Assembly: GCA_965247095.1 (NCBI GenBank)
Contig: OZ251997.1
Location: 3,104,001-3,168,000, forward strand
Direction of reading: 5' to 3'
DNA from: Candidatus Multivorans sp.
Lineage (GTDB): Bacteria > Acidobacteriota > Thermoanaerobaculia > Multivoradales > Multivoraceae
DNA: 64,000 nt
Below, piece by piece: positions 23,037 through 32,506 of this stretch. The notes below the pieces were generated by a model. It was not told the origin of the DNA, made no database searches, and saw nothing but the letters and a program-made list of their open reading frames with translations. Every line of letters begins with the position of its first letter. Within the stretch, counting starts at the first letter, position 1. Position numbers and translations under genes: made by a program.

Positions 23037-23990
23037 CTATGCCCGCTCGCCCGCGTCGTCAATCGGCCCGCCAGTCACCAGACGCGCCTCGACCGGGACG
23101 GCGGGATAGAGGTTGCCGCGATCGCCTGCCACGAAGGCGTAGACGCGGATCCCGGCCAGATGGGCGATGTCCAGCGCCAGACTGGACGGCGCTCCAACGG
23201 CGGCAATCAGTGGCACGCCGGCGACCGCCGCCTTCTGGACGATCTCGAAGCCGAGGCGTCCGCTGACCGCCAGGATCGTCGAGTCCAAGGGCAGCCGGCC
23301 GGCCTGAAGCGCCCGGCCGACGACCTTGTCGGCCGCGTTGTGGCGGCCGATGTCCTCGTAGAGCCACAGCAGCTCGGCGCGCTGGTCGTCGACTTCGAAC
23401 AGGGCGGCTGCGTGAACGCCGCCGGTGTCGTCGAACAGTTCCTGGCGACCCCTCATCGCGGCCGGCAGTTCCCGGACGAGCGAGCGTTCACGGTCCGGCG
23501 CCAGGTCGAGCGGCCGGATCGCCGGCAGCCGCACCCACAGGTCCTCGAGCGAGGGCTTGCCGCAGACGCCGCAGGCGCTCGTGACGCGGAACGCGCGTTC
23601 GCGCTTGCCGGCATCTTTCCGTTGGCCGGTCCGCCGGCGTCCTGCCGCCGAGAGCCGGATGTCGACGATCGAGCCGGGGACCAGGGTCGGCTCGTCGTCG
23701 GCCGGAACCGCTGGCTGCCCGTCGGAGCGGGTGGCGGCGCCGGCGGCGACGTCGGCCACGTCCGCGGCGTCTTCGATCCAACCCTCGGCGTACAGGTATC
23801 CCAGGGCCAGTTCCACCTCGGCGCCCGGGCTGCGCATGGTGATGACGAGGGGTTCTCCGTCGACCCGGATCTCCAGCGGCGCCTCGACCGCCACCAGGTC
23901 GCATCGCACATCGCCCTCGCCGCGCTCGACCAGGGCCTCACGGGCCGCGGCGCGTCCGGCCCCGTCAGCCGCCGGGCGGTCAGCCGCCAT
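23037..23990 (-). CDS. fdhD: Formate dehydrogenase accessory sulfurtransferase
   Basis: VAVEAPLEIRV, TMRSPG, TSACGVCGK, TGGVHAAALF, EDIGRHNAADKVVG, APSSLA. Confidence 0.93.
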   Translation of the reverse strand: MAADRPAADGAGRAAAREALVERGEGDVRCDLVAVEAPLEIRVDGEPLVITMRSPGAEVELALGYLYAEGWIEDAADVADVAAGAATRSDGQPAVPADDEPTLVPGSIVDIRLSAAGRRRTGQRKDAGKRERAFRVTSACGVCGKPSLEDLWVRLPAIRPLDLAPDRERSLVRELPAAMRGRQELFDDTGGVHAAALFEVDDQRAELLWLYEDIGRHNAADKVVGRALQAGRLPLDSTILAVSGRLGFEIVQKAAVAGVPLIAAVGAPSSLALDIAHLAGIRVYAFVAGDRGNLYPAVPVEARLVTGGPIDDAGERA

Positions 23991-26196
23991 GTGCGGCGCC
24001 CGCCCGTTCGATCCGCACCCGCACGCCGTATTCGGGCTCGCCCGAATCGGGGTCCAGCGACCAAGGCAGCAACTCCATGCACTCCGGCCAGTGCGCCTCG
24101 ACGTTGCCCGCCTTGATCGGTTGGAAGCGCGCCACCAGTTCGATCTGCGACACGGGAGACGAGACGACCACGCGGTCGCCGTCCGCGATCCCCCGGATAC
24201 GACCGTCCTCGGCGTTCATCAGCAGGTCGGAACGTTCGAGCCCTGTCAGGGCATCGCGCCCGTGATGGACCATCGAGTTGAACTGGCGGCCCCGGCGGGT
24301 CGAAAGAAAGAGCTCGCCATCCTCGAGACCGCGCTCCGCGGGCGGTTCGACGGCGTGGAAGCCGGCTCGGCCCGAGGGGGTCGCGAAGCGTCCATCCTCG
24401 AACAGGCGAGGACCGCCCCACTGGAACTGGTCGCCCTTCCGCTTCAGGTGCTCGATGCCGGCGTAGCGCGGTTCGGCGCGTGCGATCTCGTCGCGGATTG
24501 CTGCCGTGTCCGCGAAGTCGAGGGCGCCTCGCGGCTCGGGCCGGACCCTGGAGACGATCTCGCACAGCACCTCCCACTCCGGGCGGCATTCGCCCAGCCG
24601 CCGCGCCTCGGCGCCCCCGTAGTCGATCGGCGGCGAGTAGACGATCCGCCTCTCCGTCGTCGTCTCCGTCACGCCTCCGGGGATCTCGTAGCGGGTCGTC
24701 GCCGGCAGCAGAAGCACGGTGTCGCTCGGCTCGACCAGCATCGCGCCGTTGAGCACGATGTCCTGGTGGATCCGGAGCCTGGGCCGGTGCAGCGCACGCT
24801 CGATCCGTTCCCGGTCGGGCGTCGTTTCCAGGAAGTTGCCGCCGAGTAGCCAGAACGCGTCGATGTCTCCGGCCGCCGCCGCGGCGATCTGGCCGGTCGC
24901 GGCCAGTCCGGGACCGCGCGGGGGCTCGAAACCCCAGACACCGGCCCAACGGTCGAGCGTCTGCGCTTCGGTCACCGGCGCGCAGCCGACCTCGGAACCG
25001 CCCTGGACGCCGGAATGGCCGCGGATCGGAACCAGGCCCGCGCCGGGACGGCCCGGGAGGCCGCGCATCAGGCCGAGGTTGCAGATCGAGAGCACGGTGT
25101 CGACGCCGTGGCGGTGCTGGGTCAGCCCCATCGACCAGACCAGGATCGTCTTCGGCTTGGAGCAGAGAAGTGCCGCGAAACGCTCCATCTCGGCGCGCGA
25201 GGCGCCGCTCGAGCTCTCGAGCTCGGACCAGGCGGTTCCTCTCAGCGCCGCCTCGACCTCGGCGAAGCCCTCGGTGGAGCGTTCGACGAAACCGCGCGCG
25301 ACGCCTCCGGGCAGATCGAGCAGGGCCTTCATCGTGCCGTTCAGGAAGGCGAGGTCGCCGCCGGTGTCGACCGCGAACCAGTGCTGCGCCAGGTCGGTGC
25401 CGAACAGGGCGCTCGAAGGGACCGACGGCACCCAGTAGCGCTTGAGGCCGGGCTCGCGATACGGGTTGACGACCGCGATCTCGGCGCCCCGGCGGCGCGC
25501 GAAGTGGAGATACTTGATCGTCACCGGCTGGTTGTTCGGCACGTTCGAGCCGAAGAACACGATCAGGTCCGCGTCGAGCCAGTCGCGGTAGGAGTTGGTC
25601 GCGGCGCCGAATCCCAGCGCGCGATGCAACGCCACCGTGGAGGCGGCGTGGCAGAGGCGGGCAGCGGTGTCTACGTGGGGCGTACCGAGGAAGCGGGCGG
25701 CCTTCTGCGCCACGTAGTACGTCTCGTTGGGAATGCCGCGCGAGGTCAGGAAGAAGGCCGCCCGCGTGGGGTCGCGCTGCCGGACTTCCGCGAGCCTGGA
25801 CGCCGCGATGTCGGTCGCCTCGGGCCAGCCGATCCGCCGGAACCCTGGCTCTCCGGCCCGTCGCAGCATCGGGTGAGCGAGGCGTCCCAGACCGCGCAGC
25901 GCCGTCGAGCCGCGAGCGGCGAGAGCGTCGGCGTCGGCGAGGACGGCCGGGTCGAGGGCCGGCATCGTGTTCAGCCGCAGCAGATCGAGACGCACCATGC
26001 ACAGGTGGACTCCGTCCAGTGTCCAGTCGCGCAAACCCGAAGTGCCCAGCGCGCAGCCGTCGCAGACCCCGTCGCGCAGGATGCGCCACGCGTAGCCGGC
26101 CTCATCCCGGTTCCGCCACGCCACCTTCCCCATCTCCAGGAAGTGGTGCGGCTTGGTTTGCCCCAGGCCGAAGGGGATCCTGGAACCGGGGCTCAC
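23980..26196 (-). CDS. FdhF/YdeP-family molybdopterin oxidoreductase
   Basis: GVCDGCALG, AARLCHAAS (Cys ligand), PIRGHSGVQG, STRRGRQFNSM, SGEPEY. Confidence 0.9.
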   Translation of the reverse strand: MSPGSRIPFGLGQTKPHHFLEMGKVAWRNRDEAGYAWRILRDGVCDGCALGTSGLRDWTLDGVHLCMVRLDLLRLNTMPALDPAVLADADALAARGSTALRGLGRLAHPMLRRAGEPGFRRIGWPEATDIAASRLAEVRQRDPTRAAFFLTSRGIPNETYYVAQKAARFLGTPHVDTAARLCHAASTVALHRALGFGAATNSYRDWLDADLIVFFGSNVPNNQPVTIKYLHFARRRGAEIAVVNPYREPGLKRYWVPSVPSSALFGTDLAQHWFAVDTGGDLAFLNGTMKALLDLPGGVARGFVERSTEGFAEVEAALRGTAWSELESSSGASRAEMERFAALLCSKPKTILVWSMGLTQHRHGVDTVLSICNLGLMRGLPGRPGAGLVPIRGHSGVQGGSEVGCAPVTEAQTLDRWAGVWGFEPPRGPGLAATGQIAAAAAGDIDAFWLLGGNFLETTPDRERIERALHRPRLRIHQDIVLNGAMLVEPSDTVLLLPATTRYEIPGGVTETTTERRIVYSPPIDYGGAEARRLGECRPEWEVLCEIVSRVRPEPRGALDFADTAAIRDEIARAEPRYAGIEHLKRKGDQFQWGGPRLFEDGRFATPSGRAGFHAVEPPAERGLEDGELFLSTRRGRQFNSMVHHGRDALTGLERSDLLMNAEDGRIRGIADGDRVVVSSPVSQIELVARFQPIKAGNVEAHWPECMELLPWSLDPDSGEPEYGVRVRIERAGAAHGG

Positions 26197-26256: not shown

Positions 26257-28083
26257 ATGGCGCTCAAGAACTTGCTCAAGCCACTGCTTTTTCTGCCTGC
26301 CGCGGCCACGCTCTCGGCGGTCATCCTGCTGGGCGTCTCACCGACGGCGGTGGCACAGGGCCGCCGCGCGGCTGCCGCGGCTGTTGAGACATCGCCTGCC
26401 TTCGGCCCGGAGAACTTCGCCGCCGCGGTCGATCCTCGAACCGACGGCTGGGACACCGAGGCGCTCAGCGAGCAGGCCGAGGCGCAGCTCAAGCGCGTCG
26501 CGGTGTGGCTTGTGGGCGGCGCGGCCGCGGTGTCGCCGGGTGCGTTGGATGAAGTGGTTGACGAGACGTTCGAGACCCGGGGCTTCGTCCCCGATGAGTT
26601 GATCGAGCGCTACTCCGGTCCGGCTTTCACCGTGACTACCGGCCACCCTGACCGCGCAGCCTATCGGGGCGGCGAGGGCTTCCTGGAGGCGCTTCGCGCG
26701 TTGGGCGAGCGCCTGGCTGGCAACGGACCGCCGCGGGCCGACTTCAAGCTCTTCACGATCGACGGAGGCGCGTCGGGCTTCACCACCCGCTCCTACTTCG
26801 AGGCGTCGGTCTCCGGTGCCGCGCGCCACCGCCAGTTGAACGCGGTCTGGACGACGACCTGGACGTTGGCTGAGGACGGCGCGGGCGAGCCGCTCCTGCG
26901 CACGGTCGAGGTCGGCGACTACGAGGAGACTTCCGCGGCCGGAGGGGCCCTGTTCGTCGACGTCACCGAAGCCGCCGTCGGTCACAACCCGAGCTACCGG
27001 GAACAACTGCTGCAGCCGCCGGACGCCTGGCTCAACCGGATCACCAAGGCGGCTGGCTACAACAAGACGGGATGGCAGGGCGTGTCCGTCGCCGACGTCA
27101 ACGGCGACGGACTGGACGACATCTTCCTGCCCGAGCAGGGCGGACTGCCGAACCGCCTCTACGTTCAGAAGCCGAACGGCACGTTCGACGACCGTTCGGC
27201 CGCGGCGGCGGTCGACTACCTGGAACGCGCCCTCGCCGGGCTGTTCGTCGATCTCGACAACGACGGCGACCCGGACCTGGTGCTCTCCAGCCGGCCGGCG
27301 GTCCTGGTGCTCGAGAACGACGGCGACGGCGGTTTCGCCCGGGTGCGCCACATCGCGGGCGACATTCCCGACAGCAACTCGCTGTCTGCGGCCGACTACG
27401 ACGGCGACGGCGACCTCGACCTCTACGTCTGCGCCTACCGCCGCGCCTACGACGAGCGCGGGGTGGCGAGCCCGGTGCCGTACCACGACGCGAACAACGG
27501 CGGCCGCAACGTGCTGCTGCGCAACGACGGCGGGTTCCGGTTCGTCGACGCGACGGCCGCGGCGGGGCTCGACCGCAACAACCGCCGCTTCAGTCTGGCG
27601 GCGTCCTGGGAGGACTACGACGGCGACGGCGACGCGGACCTCTACGTGGCGAACGACTACGGCCGCAACAACCTGTACCGCAACGGCGGCGGCTCGTTCG
27701 TCGACGTGGCGGGGGATGCCGGAGTCGAGGACATCTCCTCCGGCATGTCGGTGAGTTGGGCCGACTACAACCGCGACGGCCGCATGGATGTCTACGTCGG
27801 CAACATGTTCTCGGCCGCCGGCAACCGGATCACCTACCAGCGGAAGTTCGAGCGCGACCGGCAGCGCGCCGGTCCGCTGGCGGAGGTCCAGCGGATGGCG
27901 CGCGGCAACTCGCTGTTCGCGGGCACAGGCGGGGGAGGGTTCGTCGACCGGAGCGTCCAGGCCGACGTGACGATGGGCCGGTGGTCGTGGTCGTCGGTGT
28001 TCGCCGACATCAACAACGATGGCTGGGAGGATCTGGTCGTAGCCAACGGCAACCTGACCCAGATCCTCCCGGACGATCTGTGA
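26257..28083 (+). CDS. Secreted FG-GAP/VCBS-repeat (CRTAC1-like) protein, part upstream of an in-frame UGA (probable Sec codon; read-through to 30555 gives 1432 aa)
   Basis: Signal peptide; multiple DxDGDGxxDL repeats; ends ...ILPDDL-TGA and stays in frame with the downstream ORF. Confidence 0.85.
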   Translation: MALKNLLKPLLFLPAAATLSAVILLGVSPTAVAQGRRAAAAAVETSPAFGPENFAAAVDPRTDGWDTEALSEQAEAQLKRVAVWLVGGAAAVSPGALDEVVDETFETRGFVPDELIERYSGPAFTVTTGHPDRAAYRGGEGFLEALRALGERLAGNGPPRADFKLFTIDGGASGFTTRSYFEASVSGAARHRQLNAVWTTTWTLAEDGAGEPLLRTVEVGDYEETSAAGGALFVDVTEAAVGHNPSYREQLLQPPDAWLNRITKAAGYNKTGWQGVSVADVNGDGLDDIFLPEQGGLPNRLYVQKPNGTFDDRSAAAAVDYLERALAGLFVDLDNDGDPDLVLSSRPAVLVLENDGDGGFARVRHIAGDIPDSNSLSAADYDGDGDLDLYVCAYRRAYDERGVASPVPYHDANNGGRNVLLRNDGGFRFVDATAAAGLDRNNRRFSLAASWEDYDGDGDADLYVANDYGRNNLYRNGGGSFVDVAGDAGVEDISSGMSVSWADYNRDGRMDVYVGNMFSAAGNRITYQRKFERDRQRAGPLAEVQRMARGNSLFAGTGGGGFVDRSVQADVTMGRWSWSSVFADINNDGWEDLVVANGNLTQILPDDL

Positions 28084-28122
28084 AGCTTCTTCTGGCGGCA
28101 GGTCGTGCCGCGTGCGCCCAGA
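28081..28122 (+). promoter_or_regulatory. UGA plus putative bacterial SECIS hairpin
   Basis: TGA-AGCTTCTTCTG-GCGGCA[GGTCG]TGCCGC, with possible lower pairing TCTG(28091-94)/CAGA(28119-22). GCAGGUC apex matches the E. coli fdhF SECIS at nearly the same spacing. Confidence 0.7.
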
Positions 28123-30555
28123 GCCCTCGATGACGGCGCGCCCGATGACCGCTCGTTGGCGCCGTATCTCGAATCCCTGCGCGCGCTCCACGAGCGGCTG
28201 GACGAGGGGTTGTCCTTCAGCGGCAACGAACGGAACTGCGTCTTCCTGAACCCCGGCCGGGCGGGCGGCGCCTTCGCCAACGCCTCGGCGGTGAGCGGCC
28301 TGGACTTTCCGGACGACGGCCGCGGCGTCGCCTTCCTCGACCTGGAGGGCGACGGCGACCTGGATGTGGCGATCAGCAACCGAACCGCGCCCCGGCTGCG
28401 GCTGATGCGCAACGAGCTGCCCTCGGGCGACCGCTTCGTCGCGCTGCACCTCGAAGGCGACGGCACCGGCACCAACCGCGACGCGGTCGGCGCCCGGGTC
28501 GAGCTTGAGACGACAGAAGGCGCCTTGCGGCGCTCGGTGCGCGCCGGCGAGGGCTTCCTCTCCCAGTCCAGCCGCTGGCTGCACTTCGGCCTCGGCGACG
28601 CCGAACCGACGGGTACGGCGATCGTTCACTGGCCGGGCGCCGGCCGGGAGACGTTCGGCGGCATCGCGGCCGGCGGCCGCTACCGGATTGTCCAGGGCAG
28701 CGGCCGGGCGGCGCCGGCGCCGGTGCGCAGGCGGCAGTCAGCCCTCGAACCGGGCGAGCAGCAGCCCCCGGCGCCGACCACGGGCGCCCGGGTCGTGCTG
28801 GCGCCGCGGCCGCCTTCGCCGCAGCTCTCGATGCGACCCTTCGGCGCCGCGGAGACGCTGCCGATCGCGATCGGACGGGGTCGGCCGGTGCTGCTCAACA
28901 TCTGGGCGAGCTGGTGCGCTCCCTGCCGGTCAGAGCTGCTCGACCTGACGCGGGAGGAGGACGCGCTACGCGCCGCCGGGCTCGAGATCGCGGCGCTGTC
29001 GACCGACGGACTGGGCGACGTGCCGACCACGACCGAGGAGTCGGCCCGGAAGTTCATGGACGAGGTCGGCTTCCCGTTCTCTAGCGGGATGGCGACCGAA
29101 GAGACCCTCGACAAGGTCGAGATCGTCAAGCGCTCGCTGTTCGACCGCCGCTTCCCGCTGTCGCTGCCGTTCTCCATGCTGATCGACGGCGAGGGCCGGG
29201 TCGCCGTTCTCTACCGTGGCGGTGTGACCGCCGGCGATCTTCTGGCCGACCTCGAACTGCTCGACGCGCCGCGCTCCACGCTGCGGGCGGCCTCCGCGCC
29301 GATTGCCGGCCGCTGGTTCACCGAGCCGCCGGACGAGGTGTCGCTGGCCAGCTACGCGCGCTGGTTCGAGGATCGGTTCCCCGCGGAATCCGTGGACCTC
29401 CTGCAACGGTCGGTGGAGGTGGAACAGGCGCGGCTGGACGGCAGCCGGGCGGACGGCGGTGGGAGAGCCTCGTTCGAGCAGCGCGGTGCGCGGGACCGGC
29501 TGTTCAAGTCGCTCCAGCGGTTGGCGGTGATCGAGAGCCGGCGCGGAGACAACCGGGCCGCCGTCCGTCACGCGCGCGCCGCACTGGACCTCGAACCGGA
29601 CGATCCGGGTGCGCGGATGGCCTACCAGAACGCCCTGGTGGACGCCGGCGACGTGGACCAGGTACGTGCCGAGGCGGAGGCGGCGCTGGCCGCGGATCCC
29701 GGCAATGTCGCGGCGCGGGTGCGCTTGGCCGAACTCCTGGACAGCGAAGGGCTAACGGAGGCCGCGGCAGATGAACTCGGTCGCGCCGTGGAGCAGAGCC
29801 CCGACGACGTAGAACTCCGCTATCTCTACGGCCAGTTGCTCGGCAAGCTGGACCGGCTGCCTTTGGCGATGGAGCAGTTCGCTGCGGTCGTCGACCGCGA
29901 TCCGCGCCACGTCGAGGCGCACCGGATCCTGGCCGTCGCGGCGGTCCGCAGCGGCTACCCGGAGGCGGCTGGGGCCCACTACCGTGCGATCCTCGCGGTG
30001 GCGCCCAGGGATGTCGACGCTCTCTACGGCGCCGCCCAGGTTGCGGCGGGGTCGGGCCGTCTGGAGGAAGCGGTGGAGGGATACCGGTCGCTTCTGGAGC
30101 ACGACCCCAATCACGCTGCCGGCCGCCACGAACTCGGGTTGACTCTTCTGCGTAGCGGACCCGAGGGCGCTATGGAGGGCACGGATCACCTGCGGCGCGC
30201 GTACGTTGAGGACGAGCGCCTGCTCGCACGGGGCAACGACCTCGCCTGGACCCTGGCAACCGATCGCGACAGCCGCCGCCGGGACGGCCAGCTCGCTCTG
30301 ATCATCGCGCTCGAGCTGAACGCAGTCGCCGGCGGCGAAGAGCCGGCCCTGCTCGAGACCCTGGCCGCAGCCCAGGCCGAGACCGGCGACTTCGACGCTG
30401 CGGTGCGAACGATCGAGACCGCCCTGGAGGCCATCCGCGGCGCGTCGGGGCGGCGGCAGGCCGCGCCGGCGTACCGGGAGCGGCTGCTTGAGCTTCTGAA
30501 CCGGAGACTGGAGCAGTACCGGCAGGGCATTCCGGTGCGGTCGGGCCGGCCATGA
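28105..30555 (+). CDS. ASPIC/UnbV + TlpA-like thioredoxin + TPR protein (in-frame continuation of 26257-28083)
   Basis: SFSGNERN, DGRGVAFLDLEGDGDLD, NRDAVGARV, GEGFLSQSSRWLHFGLG (ASPIC/UnbV), LLNIWASWCAPC, TPR helices, NDLAWTLAT...LETLAAAQAETGDF. Confidence 0.85.
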   Translation: MPRAPRALDDGAPDDRSLAPYLESLRALHERLDEGLSFSGNERNCVFLNPGRAGGAFANASAVSGLDFPDDGRGVAFLDLEGDGDLDVAISNRTAPRLRLMRNELPSGDRFVALHLEGDGTGTNRDAVGARVELETTEGALRRSVRAGEGFLSQSSRWLHFGLGDAEPTGTAIVHWPGAGRETFGGIAAGGRYRIVQGSGRAAPAPVRRRQSALEPGEQQPPAPTTGARVVLAPRPPSPQLSMRPFGAAETLPIAIGRGRPVLLNIWASWCAPCRSELLDLTREEDALRAAGLEIAALSTDGLGDVPTTTEESARKFMDEVGFPFSSGMATEETLDKVEIVKRSLFDRRFPLSLPFSMLIDGEGRVAVLYRGGVTAGDLLADLELLDAPRSTLRAASAPIAGRWFTEPPDEVSLASYARWFEDRFPAESVDLLQRSVEVEQARLDGSRADGGGRASFEQRGARDRLFKSLQRLAVIESRRGDNRAAVRHARAALDLEPDDPGARMAYQNALVDAGDVDQVRAEAEAALAADPGNVAARVRLAELLDSEGLTEAAADELGRAVEQSPDDVELRYLYGQLLGKLDRLPLAMEQFAAVVDRDPRHVEAHRILAVAAVRSGYPEAAGAHYRAILAVAPRDVDALYGAAQVAAGSGRLEEAVEGYRSLLEHDPNHAAGRHELGLTLLRSGPEGAMEGTDHLRRAYVEDERLLARGNDLAWTLATDRDSRRRDGQLALIIALELNAVAGGEEPALLETLAAAQAETGDFDAAVRTIETALEAIRGASGRRQAAPAYRERLLELLNRRLEQYRQGIPVRSGRP

Positions 30556-31281: not shown

Positions 31282-32436
31282 TCAGAGTAGAGCGAGTTGA
31301 GTTCGCGTGTTGTTCGGGTCGGGTGGTCCGCTCGGAGGTTCGAAGAGGTCCAGCAGCGATCTTCGGTCGAACAGGTTGAGTTGCAGAAGGCGCAGGATCC
31401 GGCTCATGCTCCAGGACATCTTGTTGACGAACTTCAGGTAGGCGAGCAGGAGATGGACGCACACGGCGATCCAGATCTGCGTCATGACCGCGTTGGGCGA
31501 GGCGCCGACGAAACTCTTGATGCGCAGGTTCTGTTTGATCCACTTGAAGAAGAGCTCGACCTGCCAGCGCGCCTTGTAGATGTCCGCGATGGTCTTCGGG
31601 GCGAGGCTGAAGTTGTTGGTCAGGAACTTGTAGTGCCGGCCCGTCTCCGGGTCGCGATAGCCGACCCGACGCAACGGAATCGGGCACCGCTTGCGCCCCT
31701 TGACGCTGGTCAGCTCGATGGTCTGGTCCGACGTCACGCCCCGGCCGCGAGCGAACGAGCGCCGCTCCCGAACCGCGTACTTGACCTTGCGCTTCAGGCG
31801 GGTGACCAGGAAAACCCCTTGTGCATCAAGGTCCTTTAGCCATCCGAAGTCGAGGTACAGACGGTCCGCCGCCACGATGCTCCCCTTCGGAAGACGAAGC
31901 GACCGGGCCACCTCGAGGTCCGAGCCCTTGCCGTCGGTGACGTGCAGGAACGACGGCAGACAGCCCTCGTGGTCGAGACCCACGTGCAGCTTCAACGCAC
32001 CCTTGGTCTTGCGGTACCGCGCCCAGGGAAACACCTTCAGGCACAGGTCCACGTACGTGGCGTCGAGCGACAACAGCTTGTTCCGGAAACGGAACCCATG
32101 CCCCGGCGCCGCCGCCTGACAACGGCTCAGAAGGCGACCGAACAGCGCCTCGTACAGTTCGTGAGGCTGCTCTCTGTTCACCCGCGCCAGCGAAGATCGG
32201 GCTACCCGGCCAACGCCGAGATGGTACAGCTTGTGAGCCTGCGCATCCAGGTTCGACACGATGTCTCGCAGACTGCGCCGCCCGGAAAGCTGCGCCATCG
32301 CCATCGCTACGAACTGGCCCCAGCGGCTCATCGAGCGCAGCTTGCGTCCCCTGTGATGCCGCCGGGCCTCCCGCTCGAACTCATGTCTCGACACCAGCTT
32401 GAGGAACTGGCCAAGTACGGTACTATTGTGCGCCAT
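31282..32436 (-). CDS. IS4-family transposase (copy 1)
   Basis: MAHNSTVLGQ..., SLDATY, KLHVGLD, AADRLY, YKARWQVELFFKWIKQNL (YREK motif). Confidence 0.93.
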   Translation of the reverse strand: MAHNSTVLGQFLKLVSRHEFEREARRHHRGRKLRSMSRWGQFVAMAMAQLSGRRSLRDIVSNLDAQAHKLYHLGVGRVARSSLARVNREQPHELYEALFGRLLSRCQAAAPGHGFRFRNKLLSLDATYVDLCLKVFPWARYRKTKGALKLHVGLDHEGCLPSFLHVTDGKGSDLEVARSLRLPKGSIVAADRLYLDFGWLKDLDAQGVFLVTRLKRKVKYAVRERRSFARGRGVTSDQTIELTSVKGRKRCPIPLRRVGYRDPETGRHYKFLTNNFSLAPKTIADIYKARWQVELFFKWIKQNLRIKSFVGASPNAVMTQIWIAVCVHLLLAYLKFVNKMSWSMSRILRLLQLNLFDRRSLLDLFEPPSGPPDPNNTRTQLALL

Positions 32437-32506
32437 GGGTCTGGATCTCCTTGCCGTCATTGGCTTTGCTTGAACACCAATCATACGACAAGGCACGGTT
32501 CAGACC

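Follow-up and report, generated by a model that had tools for sequence, protein, structure and literature searches.

This report concerns a candidate selenoprotein gene in a 64,000-nucleotide stretch of DNA from Candidatus Multivorans sp. (assembly GCA_965247095.1, contig OZ251997.1, positions 3,104,001 to 3,168,000 of the forward strand), hereafter the window, to whose first letter all coordinates refer. At 26257-30555, two open reading frames (ORFs), 26257-28083 (608 residues) and 28105-30555 (816 residues), share one frame, and the sole stop between them is the TGA at 28081-28083, shortly followed by a hairpin that resembles a selenocysteine insertion sequence (SECIS). Judging from the sequence comparisons described below, the UGA is very probably a genuine selenocysteine (Sec) codon and the two ORFs are a single gene of 1432 codons. 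Its central features are as follows.

26257..30555, plus strand: whole proposed selenoprotein gene, 1432 codons plus a TGA stop, with the internal UGA read through (from the ORFs and the translation)
28081..28083, plus strand: UGA codon, read as Sec609 (TGA at the same column in homologs)
28094..28112, plus strand: SECIS-like hairpin GCGGCA-GGUCG-UGCCGC (stem 28095-28100/28106-28111, loop GGUCG 28101-28105)
28105..28107, plus strand: GTG (Val617), called by gene callers as the start of an 816-residue 'tetratricopeptide repeat protein'

After read-through, the sequence around residue 609 is ...NGNLTQILPDDL-U-SFFWRQVVPRAP... (1432 residues; ...ILPDDL-U-SFFWRQVVPRAP), and the terminal stop of the gene is a TGA too. 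FG-GAP sequence resumes past the internal TGA with FLDLEGDGDLD, and Pfam FG-GAP_3 is matched in five stretches, whereas the GTG at 28105-28107 sits within the 3' arm of the hairpin. An earlier, sequence-only reading of this DNA had described same-frame ORFs split only by the TGA at 28081, a break inside a run of FG-GAP repeats that continues on both sides, an alternative GTG start overlapping the hairpin, and a 1432-residue read-through product with Sec609; the ORF list, the translation and Pfam bear out each of these points.

Public annotation cuts this single selenoprotein gene in two and names the second half 'tetratricopeptide repeat protein'. Among database homologs, 59 of 120 matches are C-terminal ORFs of ~800-860 residues, often carrying the same name, and the 12 C-terminal ORFs among the matches listed all start with MPRAP or VPRAP. 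The GTG-started 816-residue gene is an annotation artefact.

Conservation of the UGA codon and the decoding machinery

An alignment of homologs across DL[x]SFFWRQV, which the sequence-only reading had named as a check, puts TGA at precisely this column in homologs of four labelled phyla or more. Same-genus orthologs were collected by a six-frame search that reads through stops, and the site column was assigned by local alignment of each locus to the Sec site. All 24 of 24 same-genus genomes hold an ortholog with exactly one internal TGA, at 85-95% amino-acid identity and at the same column (D-L-U-S-F-F-W-R-Q-V-V), and other families of the order have TGA forms at 38-60% identity. A sample of 401 genomes from the phylum contains the family in 96 (E <= 1e-8), with at least one TGA form in 59 and solely non-TGA forms in 37; the counts from this sample include unpublished genomes (G088 and G189 in the family and SelA counts, G063 in the SelA count), and no conclusion rests on them. 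In 40 of 40 further fetched TGA loci the TGA again stands at the same column, within D-[TLYF]-U-[ST]-x-[FL]-W-R-[QH]-V-V, and the consensus around Sec is D-x-U-S/T-x-F-W-R-Q/H-V-V.

When one genome per species was scanned with a DNA pattern of the TGA form, at least 120 stretches matched, of which 80 loci were read. One of these (L151) is a chance match and 79 are true homologs, assigned by record title to Acidobacteriota (35), Planctomycetota (27), Verrucomicrobiota (13) and Latescibacterota (2), with two unplaced; the nearest relatives among the matches listed are labelled, for example, as Holophagales bacterium, Acidobacteria bacterium or Candidatus Multivorans sp. Several genomes (G093, G201, G033, G112, G127 and others) carry two to four TGA-form paralogs, both long (~1300-1450 residues) and short (~950-1000 residues); the family has diversified as a selenoprotein.

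The codons that follow the UGA are strongly constrained. Across 145 distinct TGA forms, the seven codons from the UGA to the usual GTG are free of insertions and deletions; the codon after the UGA encodes Ser or Thr (AGC in 97, AGT in 38, TCG in 3 and ACN in 5), and the third codon encodes Phe (TTC/TTT) or Leu. In 134 of the 145, the second of the two Val codons reads GTG, and nine have GTC, GTA or GCG there, which are not start codons. The SFFWRQVV peptide runs uninterrupted in the non-TGA homologs, which are 1017-1450 residues long and continuous across the Sec site. The codons just 3' of the UGA are, by this pattern of conservation, evidently translated.

At the Sec column itself, the residues in the 61 full-length database proteins spanning it are N in 19, A in 12, S in 12, D in 7, C in 4, G in 2, E in 2, H in 2 and Y in 1. 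The four Cys homologs are P0009, P0012, P0070 and P0080, to which two distant genome loci (L121 and L122) can be added, and the two database proteins closest to the studied protein (55% identity) both have Cys, in DLCSFFWRQVV. The tabulation of this column, also proposed by the earlier reading, shows that Cys homologs do exist, with N, A, S or D standing there in the majority of non-Sec homologs. The paralogs in the source genome (~30% identity) are gapped over the whole Sec segment and are therefore unusable as Cys/Sec comparators.

The source genome, a single contig of 4.62 Mb, was checked for sel genes and contains all of selA, selB, selD and tRNA-Sec: a SelA match (6.5e-104), a SelB winged-helix domain (3.3e-19) in a 724-residue frame, a SelD match (4.1e-77) and a tRNA-Sec with anticodon TCA. 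The SelD match (G000:C1:1850014-1850931, locus L003) lies in an open frame of 854 residues, as against 311 positions in the SelD model, which suggests a fusion or an extended protein. In the phylum sample, 55 of the 59 TGA-form genomes give a strong SelA match, and the remaining four (G120, G265, G290 and G350) have a tRNA-Sec scoring 68-76 bits (Rfam gathering score 47) together with a SelB wing domain; no TGA form was found in a genome lacking Sec machinery among these 59. Co-occurrence with the machinery is a weak test because SelA is widespread in the phylum sample, being present in 312 of the 401 genomes.

The hairpin downstream of the UGA

The sequence-only reading had pointed to the hairpin GCGGCA-GGUCG-UGCCGC 11 nucleotides past the UGA, and it is found there, at 28095-28111; an outer pair, 28094/28112, is absent here and is formed in other family members. 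The model for bacterial SECIS elements (bSECIS) comprises a loop of 3-9 nucleotides with G in its two opening positions, a stem of 4-16 base pairs, a distance of 16-37 nucleotides from the UGA and a minimum free energy <= -7.5 kcal/mol (PMC13188914, section 5). The present hairpin falls inside all of these ranges, with its GGUCG loop, a 6-base-pair stem, 17 nucleotides from UGA to loop and -11.6 kcal/mol for 28094-28113 folded alone (z -2.84; none of 200 shuffles folds as well). Described more broadly, the hairpin has a 5-nucleotide loop that opens with GG or CG followed by U, on a stem of 6-7 base pairs.

Support for the structure also comes from comparison among relatives. From 73 distinct TGA forms, 51 nucleotides beginning 6 nucleotides 5' of the TGA were aligned without gaps, the helix corresponding to columns 20-26/32-38 (7 base pairs, 5-nucleotide loop). 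Pairing is found in 86.3% of cells, compared with 78.9% in column shuffles, none of 500 of which reach 86.3%, and shifted registers of the helix are 28-74% paired. The pair 24-34 takes all four Watson-Crick forms (CG 32, GC 24, UA 5, AU 2), besides GU in 7 and unpaired in 3. The Arg codon has its wobble base in column 24, and column 34 holds the first base of the codon that follows V-V (Pro/Ala/Ser/Thr, NCG); therefore, a synonymous site covaries with the choice of an amino acid. In 26 non-TGA homologs, 51.1% of cells are paired versus 51.2% after shuffling, and the pair 24-34 is unpaired in 16 of the 26. The suggested check on conservation and covariation of the hairpin has thus revealed a hairpin that is maintained through compensatory changes in the TGA forms but not retained in the non-TGA forms.

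In all 79 homologs from the pattern scan, 5-7 of the 7 pairs can form, in either of two registers; the scan pattern fixed the 5' arm of the hairpin, and columns 33-38 were unconstrained. The second register belongs to a subgroup with the peptide PD[YF]-U-[TP]-FFWRQVVADAE (L077, L082, L144, L159, L163 and L196), in which a shifted hairpin, GGCGACA-GGU-UGUCGCC, has a 3-nucleotide loop. An Rfam scan of 27900-28300 (E up to 10) returned only a chance microRNA match of 15.2 bits; as we know of no bacterial SECIS model in Rfam, this result carries no weight either way.

The closest known parallel is E. coli fdhF, in which an in-frame UGA is likewise followed by a short hairpin in the coding region and selA, selB, selC and selD are required. 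The GCAGGUC motif is identical, with G-G-U opening the apical loop in both, and it begins 14 nucleotides after the UGA here as against 15 nucleotides in the E. coli K-12 fdhF record, in agreement with the spacing given by the sequence-only reading. There are also significant differences. The protein families are unrelated, the loop is of 5 nucleotides here and 4 in fdhF, no obvious bulged U is seen here, and the hairpin lies in a WRQVV peptide that is conserved even in non-Sec homologs; binding by SelB is here a prediction.

Selenocysteine and the rival readings of the UGA

We propose that the SelA/SelB/SelD/tRNA-Sec system decodes the UGA at 28081-28083 as selenocysteine, with insertion directed by the hairpin, whose 5' arm and loop are encoded in the peptide W-R-Q-V and whose 3' arm lies in V and an NCG codon. 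The product would be one exported protein of 1432 residues, in which an N-terminal domain is followed by a CRTAC1-like FG-GAP propeller, an ASPIC/UnbV domain, a ResA/TlpA-like thioredoxin domain with WC887APC890 and tetratricopeptide repeats (TPRs), and a truncated product of 608 residues would be expected under selenium scarcity. Decoding as selenocysteine, as the sequence-only reading had supposed, is strongly supported by the conserved column, the machinery, the TGA-specific hairpin and the Cys homologs; all the refuting conditions listed by that reading were put to the test, and none spoke against it.

If the TGA were instead a true stop, the locus would hold two genes, namely a 608-residue exported propeller fragment ending at 28083 and an 816-residue protein starting from GTG 28105, as in the public annotation. 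Public gene callers do choose this split, as the 59 C-terminal ORFs among database matches also attest, and with GTG in 134 of the 145 TGA forms a start codon is usually on hand. However, the codons between TGA and GTG are free of indels in 145 distinct sequences from four phyla, conservation after the TGA is at the amino-acid level, including a switch of Ser between AGY and TCG, the same SFFWRQV is found in continuous non-TGA homologs, and a start codon is missing from the GTG position in nine of the 145. An export signal would be lacking in the downstream piece, and yet this carries propeller blades, an ASPIC domain and a domain of ResA/TlpA type, which is extracytoplasmic in solved relatives; the split would also sever a confidently modelled single propeller. 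Translated codons, missing start codons, the lack of an export signal and the one-propeller model together make the split-gene reading very unlikely.

Read-through might also occur with a residue other than selenocysteine (near-cognate Trp, Cys or Arg), or the UGA might be mainly a leaky stop that sets the ratio between truncated and full-length isoforms, the hairpin merely stimulating read-through. The variable and mostly non-Cys residue in homologs would fit such a reading, in that the chemistry at this site may not be essential, and so would the four TGA-form genomes without a strong SelA match. Against it, all 59 of the 59 TGA-form genomes have Sec machinery (four of them by tRNA-Sec and SelB), the hairpin fits the spacing and the G-U loop of a SelB-type bSECIS and shares GCAGGUC with E. 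coli fdhF, the closest non-TGA relatives carry Cys, and retention of the UGA over a very long divergence implies that the inserted residue matters. We consider non-Sec read-through distinctly improbable. The chance that the TGA arose by an error of sequencing or assembly, or marks a recent pseudogene, is practically negligible: nothing in favour of this was found, whereas independent assemblies yield the same TGA in over 140 distinct sequences, which excludes the sequencing error that the earlier reading had wished to see checked, both halves are under purifying selection (85-95% amino-acid identity within the genus), and contigs from other DNA runs, of two other studies, span the site (X5 record 17 and X9 record 25). 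Genome-wide reassignment of TGA was considered and rejected, as the gene itself ends in TGA and its paralogs have no in-frame TGAs.

Several observations nevertheless weigh against the selenocysteine reading. When 66 nucleotides around the site are folded together, the result is no better than that for shuffles (z 0.23), and the conserved peptide WRQV fixes the 5' arm and the loop of the hairpin; therefore, independent structural support comes mainly from the 3' arm and one covarying pair. The absence of Cys from 57 of the 61 non-Sec database homologs is unusual for a catalytic Sec, and a strong SelA match is missing in four TGA-form genomes, as noted above. One non-TGA form (L059, from genome G125) has Glu at the Sec column and yet keeps a perfect hairpin, GCGCCA-GGUCG-UGGCGC; it may represent a recent loss of Sec. 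Finally, none of the contigs from RNA libraries spans the UGA (X15 at 27696-28063; X16 at 27618-28037 and 28180-28295), and presence in an RNA library does not in itself prove transcription.

In the DNA contigs of two other runs, the summed depth rises to 521 and 241 in the 34-nucleotide bin 28076-28109, compared with ~40 beside it, and many contigs end there. Many genes or organisms in those samples probably have the segment with the UGA and the hairpin in common at the nucleotide level, which breaks the assemblies.

Architecture, possible function and genomic context

The domains of the 1432-residue protein and the segments that encode them are as follows.

26257..26361, plus strand: predicted N-terminal export signal, residues 1-35, MALKNLLKPLLFLPAAATLSAVILLGVSPTAVA followed by QG at the cleavage point (inferred by reading the sequence)
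27049..28440, plus strand: FG-GAP beta-propeller, ~residues 265-728, broken by the Sec-bearing helical insertion (Pfam, AlphaFold2, Foldseek)
28081..28206, plus strand: helix-loop-helix insertion specific to the subfamily, residues 609-650 (DSSP of the model; paralogs gapped)
28483..28683, plus strand: ASPIC/UnbV domain, residues 743-809 (Pfam PF07593, 2.6e-14, 53.3 bits, cut-off 23.4)
28876..29208, plus strand: ResA/TlpA-like thioredoxin-fold domain, residues 874-984 (Pfam AhpC-TSA, 33.5 bits, cut-off 26; Foldseek)
29509..30159, plus strand: C-terminal TPR array, residues ~1085-1301 (Pfam TPR_19, TPR_14, TPR_17, TPR_2 and others)

The AlphaFold2 model, made from a 57-row alignment, has a mean predicted local distance difference test (pLDDT) of 90.7 and a predicted template modelling score (pTM) of 0.92, and in it both halves form a single propeller. 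Just past the predicted cleavage site, protein residues 36-49 (model 1-14) have pLDDT < 50; the N-termini of homologs are likewise hydrophobic or lipobox-like. The best Foldseek match of the model is murine CRTAC1 (9etn_A, E 4.8e-26, TMt 0.73). FG-GAP_3 (1.2e-40, 138.3 bits), FG-GAP (1.3e-25, 89.2 bits) and UnbV_ASPIC all score above the Pfam cut-offs and the fold matches, which places the protein in the CRTAC1/ASPIC-UnbV FG-GAP family. For the C-terminal domain, the nearest structures are ResA (2f9s, E 1.5e-9, TMt 0.84), TlpA, CcmG and DsbE, with 1jfu and 1kng among the matches, and a thioredoxin fold is here combined with a CxxC motif. The WCAPC thioredoxin domain noticed downstream by the sequence-only reading is thus indeed present, at residues 886-890, with W-C887-A-P-C890 coded at 28915-28926. 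The architecture is kept in Sec forms of other phyla, except that the TPRs alone are missing from the short Sec form L090 (962 residues).

In the predicted model, Sec609 (model residue 574; adding 35 to the model number gives the protein number) is the first residue of an alpha-helix right after a beta-strand; DSSP assigns a strand at model residues 569-572, a helix at 574-584 and, ending the insertion, a second helix at 596-614. Reactive Cys and Sec residues are usually found at a helix start after a beta-strand, as in the centres of glutathione peroxidases and peroxiredoxins. The geometry of Sec609 in the model is similar to these, but there is no relation in sequence or fold and no conserved resolving Cys nearby apart from the distant CxxC.

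These features suggest an extracytoplasmic oxidoreductase in which Sec609, starting the alpha-helix of the insertion, would attack a substrate held by the propeller as the redox nucleophile, and the fused CxxC domain would resolve the oxidised Sec609 (a selenenic acid or selenenylsulfide) in cis and would itself be re-reduced like other domains of ResA/TlpA type. We put this forward tentatively, with slightly more doubt than belief. CxxC is found at the thioredoxin position in 121 of 125 distinct Sec forms, three of four Cys forms and 10 of 74 other forms; Sec609, C887 and C890 are the only Cys-type columns present in nearly all Sec forms (97-100%) and much less often in non-Sec forms, and C661 is seen solely in Sec forms, in just 34% of them.

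Other results count against such a relay. Four Sec forms, three from Planctomycetota (L156, L166 and L181) and one with an Akkermansiaceae label (L189), have no CxxC and keep the UGA and the hairpin, the motif being replaced in Sec forms that lack it by, for example, VIVWNSAEPNA or CPVS; these four are natural counter-examples to an obligatory relay between Sec and CxxC. In a tree of 208 rows, for which the Sec site and the CxxC motif were masked, there are at least 12 changes of the site state and at least 8 of CxxC, and of ~10 independent contrasts ~3 co-vary, none goes in the opposite direction and ~7 are unchanged (sign-test p ~0.25). The raw association largely reflects one deep split, between a clade with Sec and CxxC and an N/A/S/D clade without CxxC. 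As the association loses significance when shared ancestry is taken into account, the relay is unproven; for the idea of the sequence-only reading that the WCAPC domain could recycle Sec, co-occurrence is thus strong in its raw form only. A complex prediction for the Cys homolog P0009, residues 60-885 versus 900-1060 (48-row alignment each; score 0.02, mark 0.32), speaks neither for nor against docking between the thioredoxin domain and the propeller.

The protein exhibits similarities to several known systems, but there are also differences. It shares FG-GAP and UnbV_ASPIC with CRTAC1/ASPIC-UnbV proteins, of which murine CRTAC1 (PDB 9etn) is the top structural match, whereas the studied subfamily adds the Sec-bearing insertion, an N-terminal domain, a fused thioredoxin-like domain and TPRs. 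The fold, the W-C-x-P-C motif and the exported location are those of ResA/TlpA/CcmG reductases; unlike these, it is here one domain of a 1432-residue protein and not a free membrane-anchored reductase, and its proposed partner is a Sec in the same chain. Catalogued thioredoxin-fold selenoproteins have a similar type of domain, but their Sec lies inside the thioredoxin motif, whereas here the motif is all-Cys (WCAPC) and the Sec is 278 residues upstream, in the propeller.

The sequence-only reading knew of no described selenoprotein of the CRTAC1/ASPIC-UnbV type, and none emerged from the searched literature, a table of 119 families or NCBIfam 20.0, supplementary lists being outside this scope. 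Full-text searches found no selenoprotein or selenocysteine linked to FG-GAP, ASPIC, CRTAC1 or VCBS, and no FG-GAP, ASPIC or CRTAC1 entry stands among the 119 prokaryotic selenoprotein families and subfamilies in Table 1 of a 2026 review (PMC13188914). In NCBIfam 20.0 no model reaches its cut-off; NF041054 (WAxxUGC) scores 28.9 bits versus 300, over the thioredoxin domain only. The main texts of BSepDB (PMC13326102), deep-Sep (PMC12013277), a 2022 review (PMC9312934) and the GOS paper (PMC2398784) contain no FG-GAP, ASPIC, CRTAC1 or VCBS, although supplementary candidate lists outside the search could hold the family; Planctomycetes selenoprotein candidates, for example, are listed in S9 Table of PMC4807772, whose entries could include it. 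It is likely that the family is new to the searched literature and curated models, and that it is decoded by the standard mechanism.

A further idea, which we regard as doubtful, is that this would be the first beta-propeller (CRTAC1-like) selenoprotein family, with a Sec site born at a mostly non-Cys position in a coding sequence pre-adapted to it. In the peptide F-W-R-Q-V-V (UGG CGN CAG GUN GUN), the 5' arm of a SelB-type hairpin and its G-U loop would already be spelled out; one downstream NCG codon complementary to the Arg wobble base would be enough to finish a SECIS, by which a UGA lying two to three codons upstream could be read as Sec. If true, the family would show how a coding sequence can be pre-adapted for new Sec sites, and would provide an exported selenol centre with a fused thioredoxin domain acting on an extracellular substrate. 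A hairpin coded by a peptide, with covariation between the Arg wobble and the next codon, would be a compact natural test case for the co-evolution of SECIS and protein.

If confirmed, a large multi-domain exported family would join the bacterial selenoproteome, in at least four labelled phyla known for the most part from environmental genomes, and a systematic annotation error, by which the gene is stored as two ORFs in the searched databases, would be corrected. To our knowledge, bacterial CRTAC1/ASPIC FG-GAP propellers have no known function; placing selenium chemistry in this class would offer a handle on it.

The neighbouring genes within the window are as follows.

23037-23990, minus strand: FdhD/NarQ (4.5e-53)
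23980-26196, minus strand: molybdopterin oxidoreductase, 738 residues (Molybdopterin 1e-28, Molydop_binding 2.1e-9)
31282-32496, minus strand: DDE transposase (DUF4372 3.4e-29, DDE_Tnp_1 3.7e-28)

The molybdopterin oxidoreductase is divergent from the selenoprotein gene, with its start 60 base pairs away, so that the divergent pair with FdhD noted by the sequence-only reading is found as described. The oxidoreductase frame has no internal stop and is therefore not itself a Sec form. On the other side, the DDE transposase lies ~0.7 kb downstream of the selenoprotein gene.

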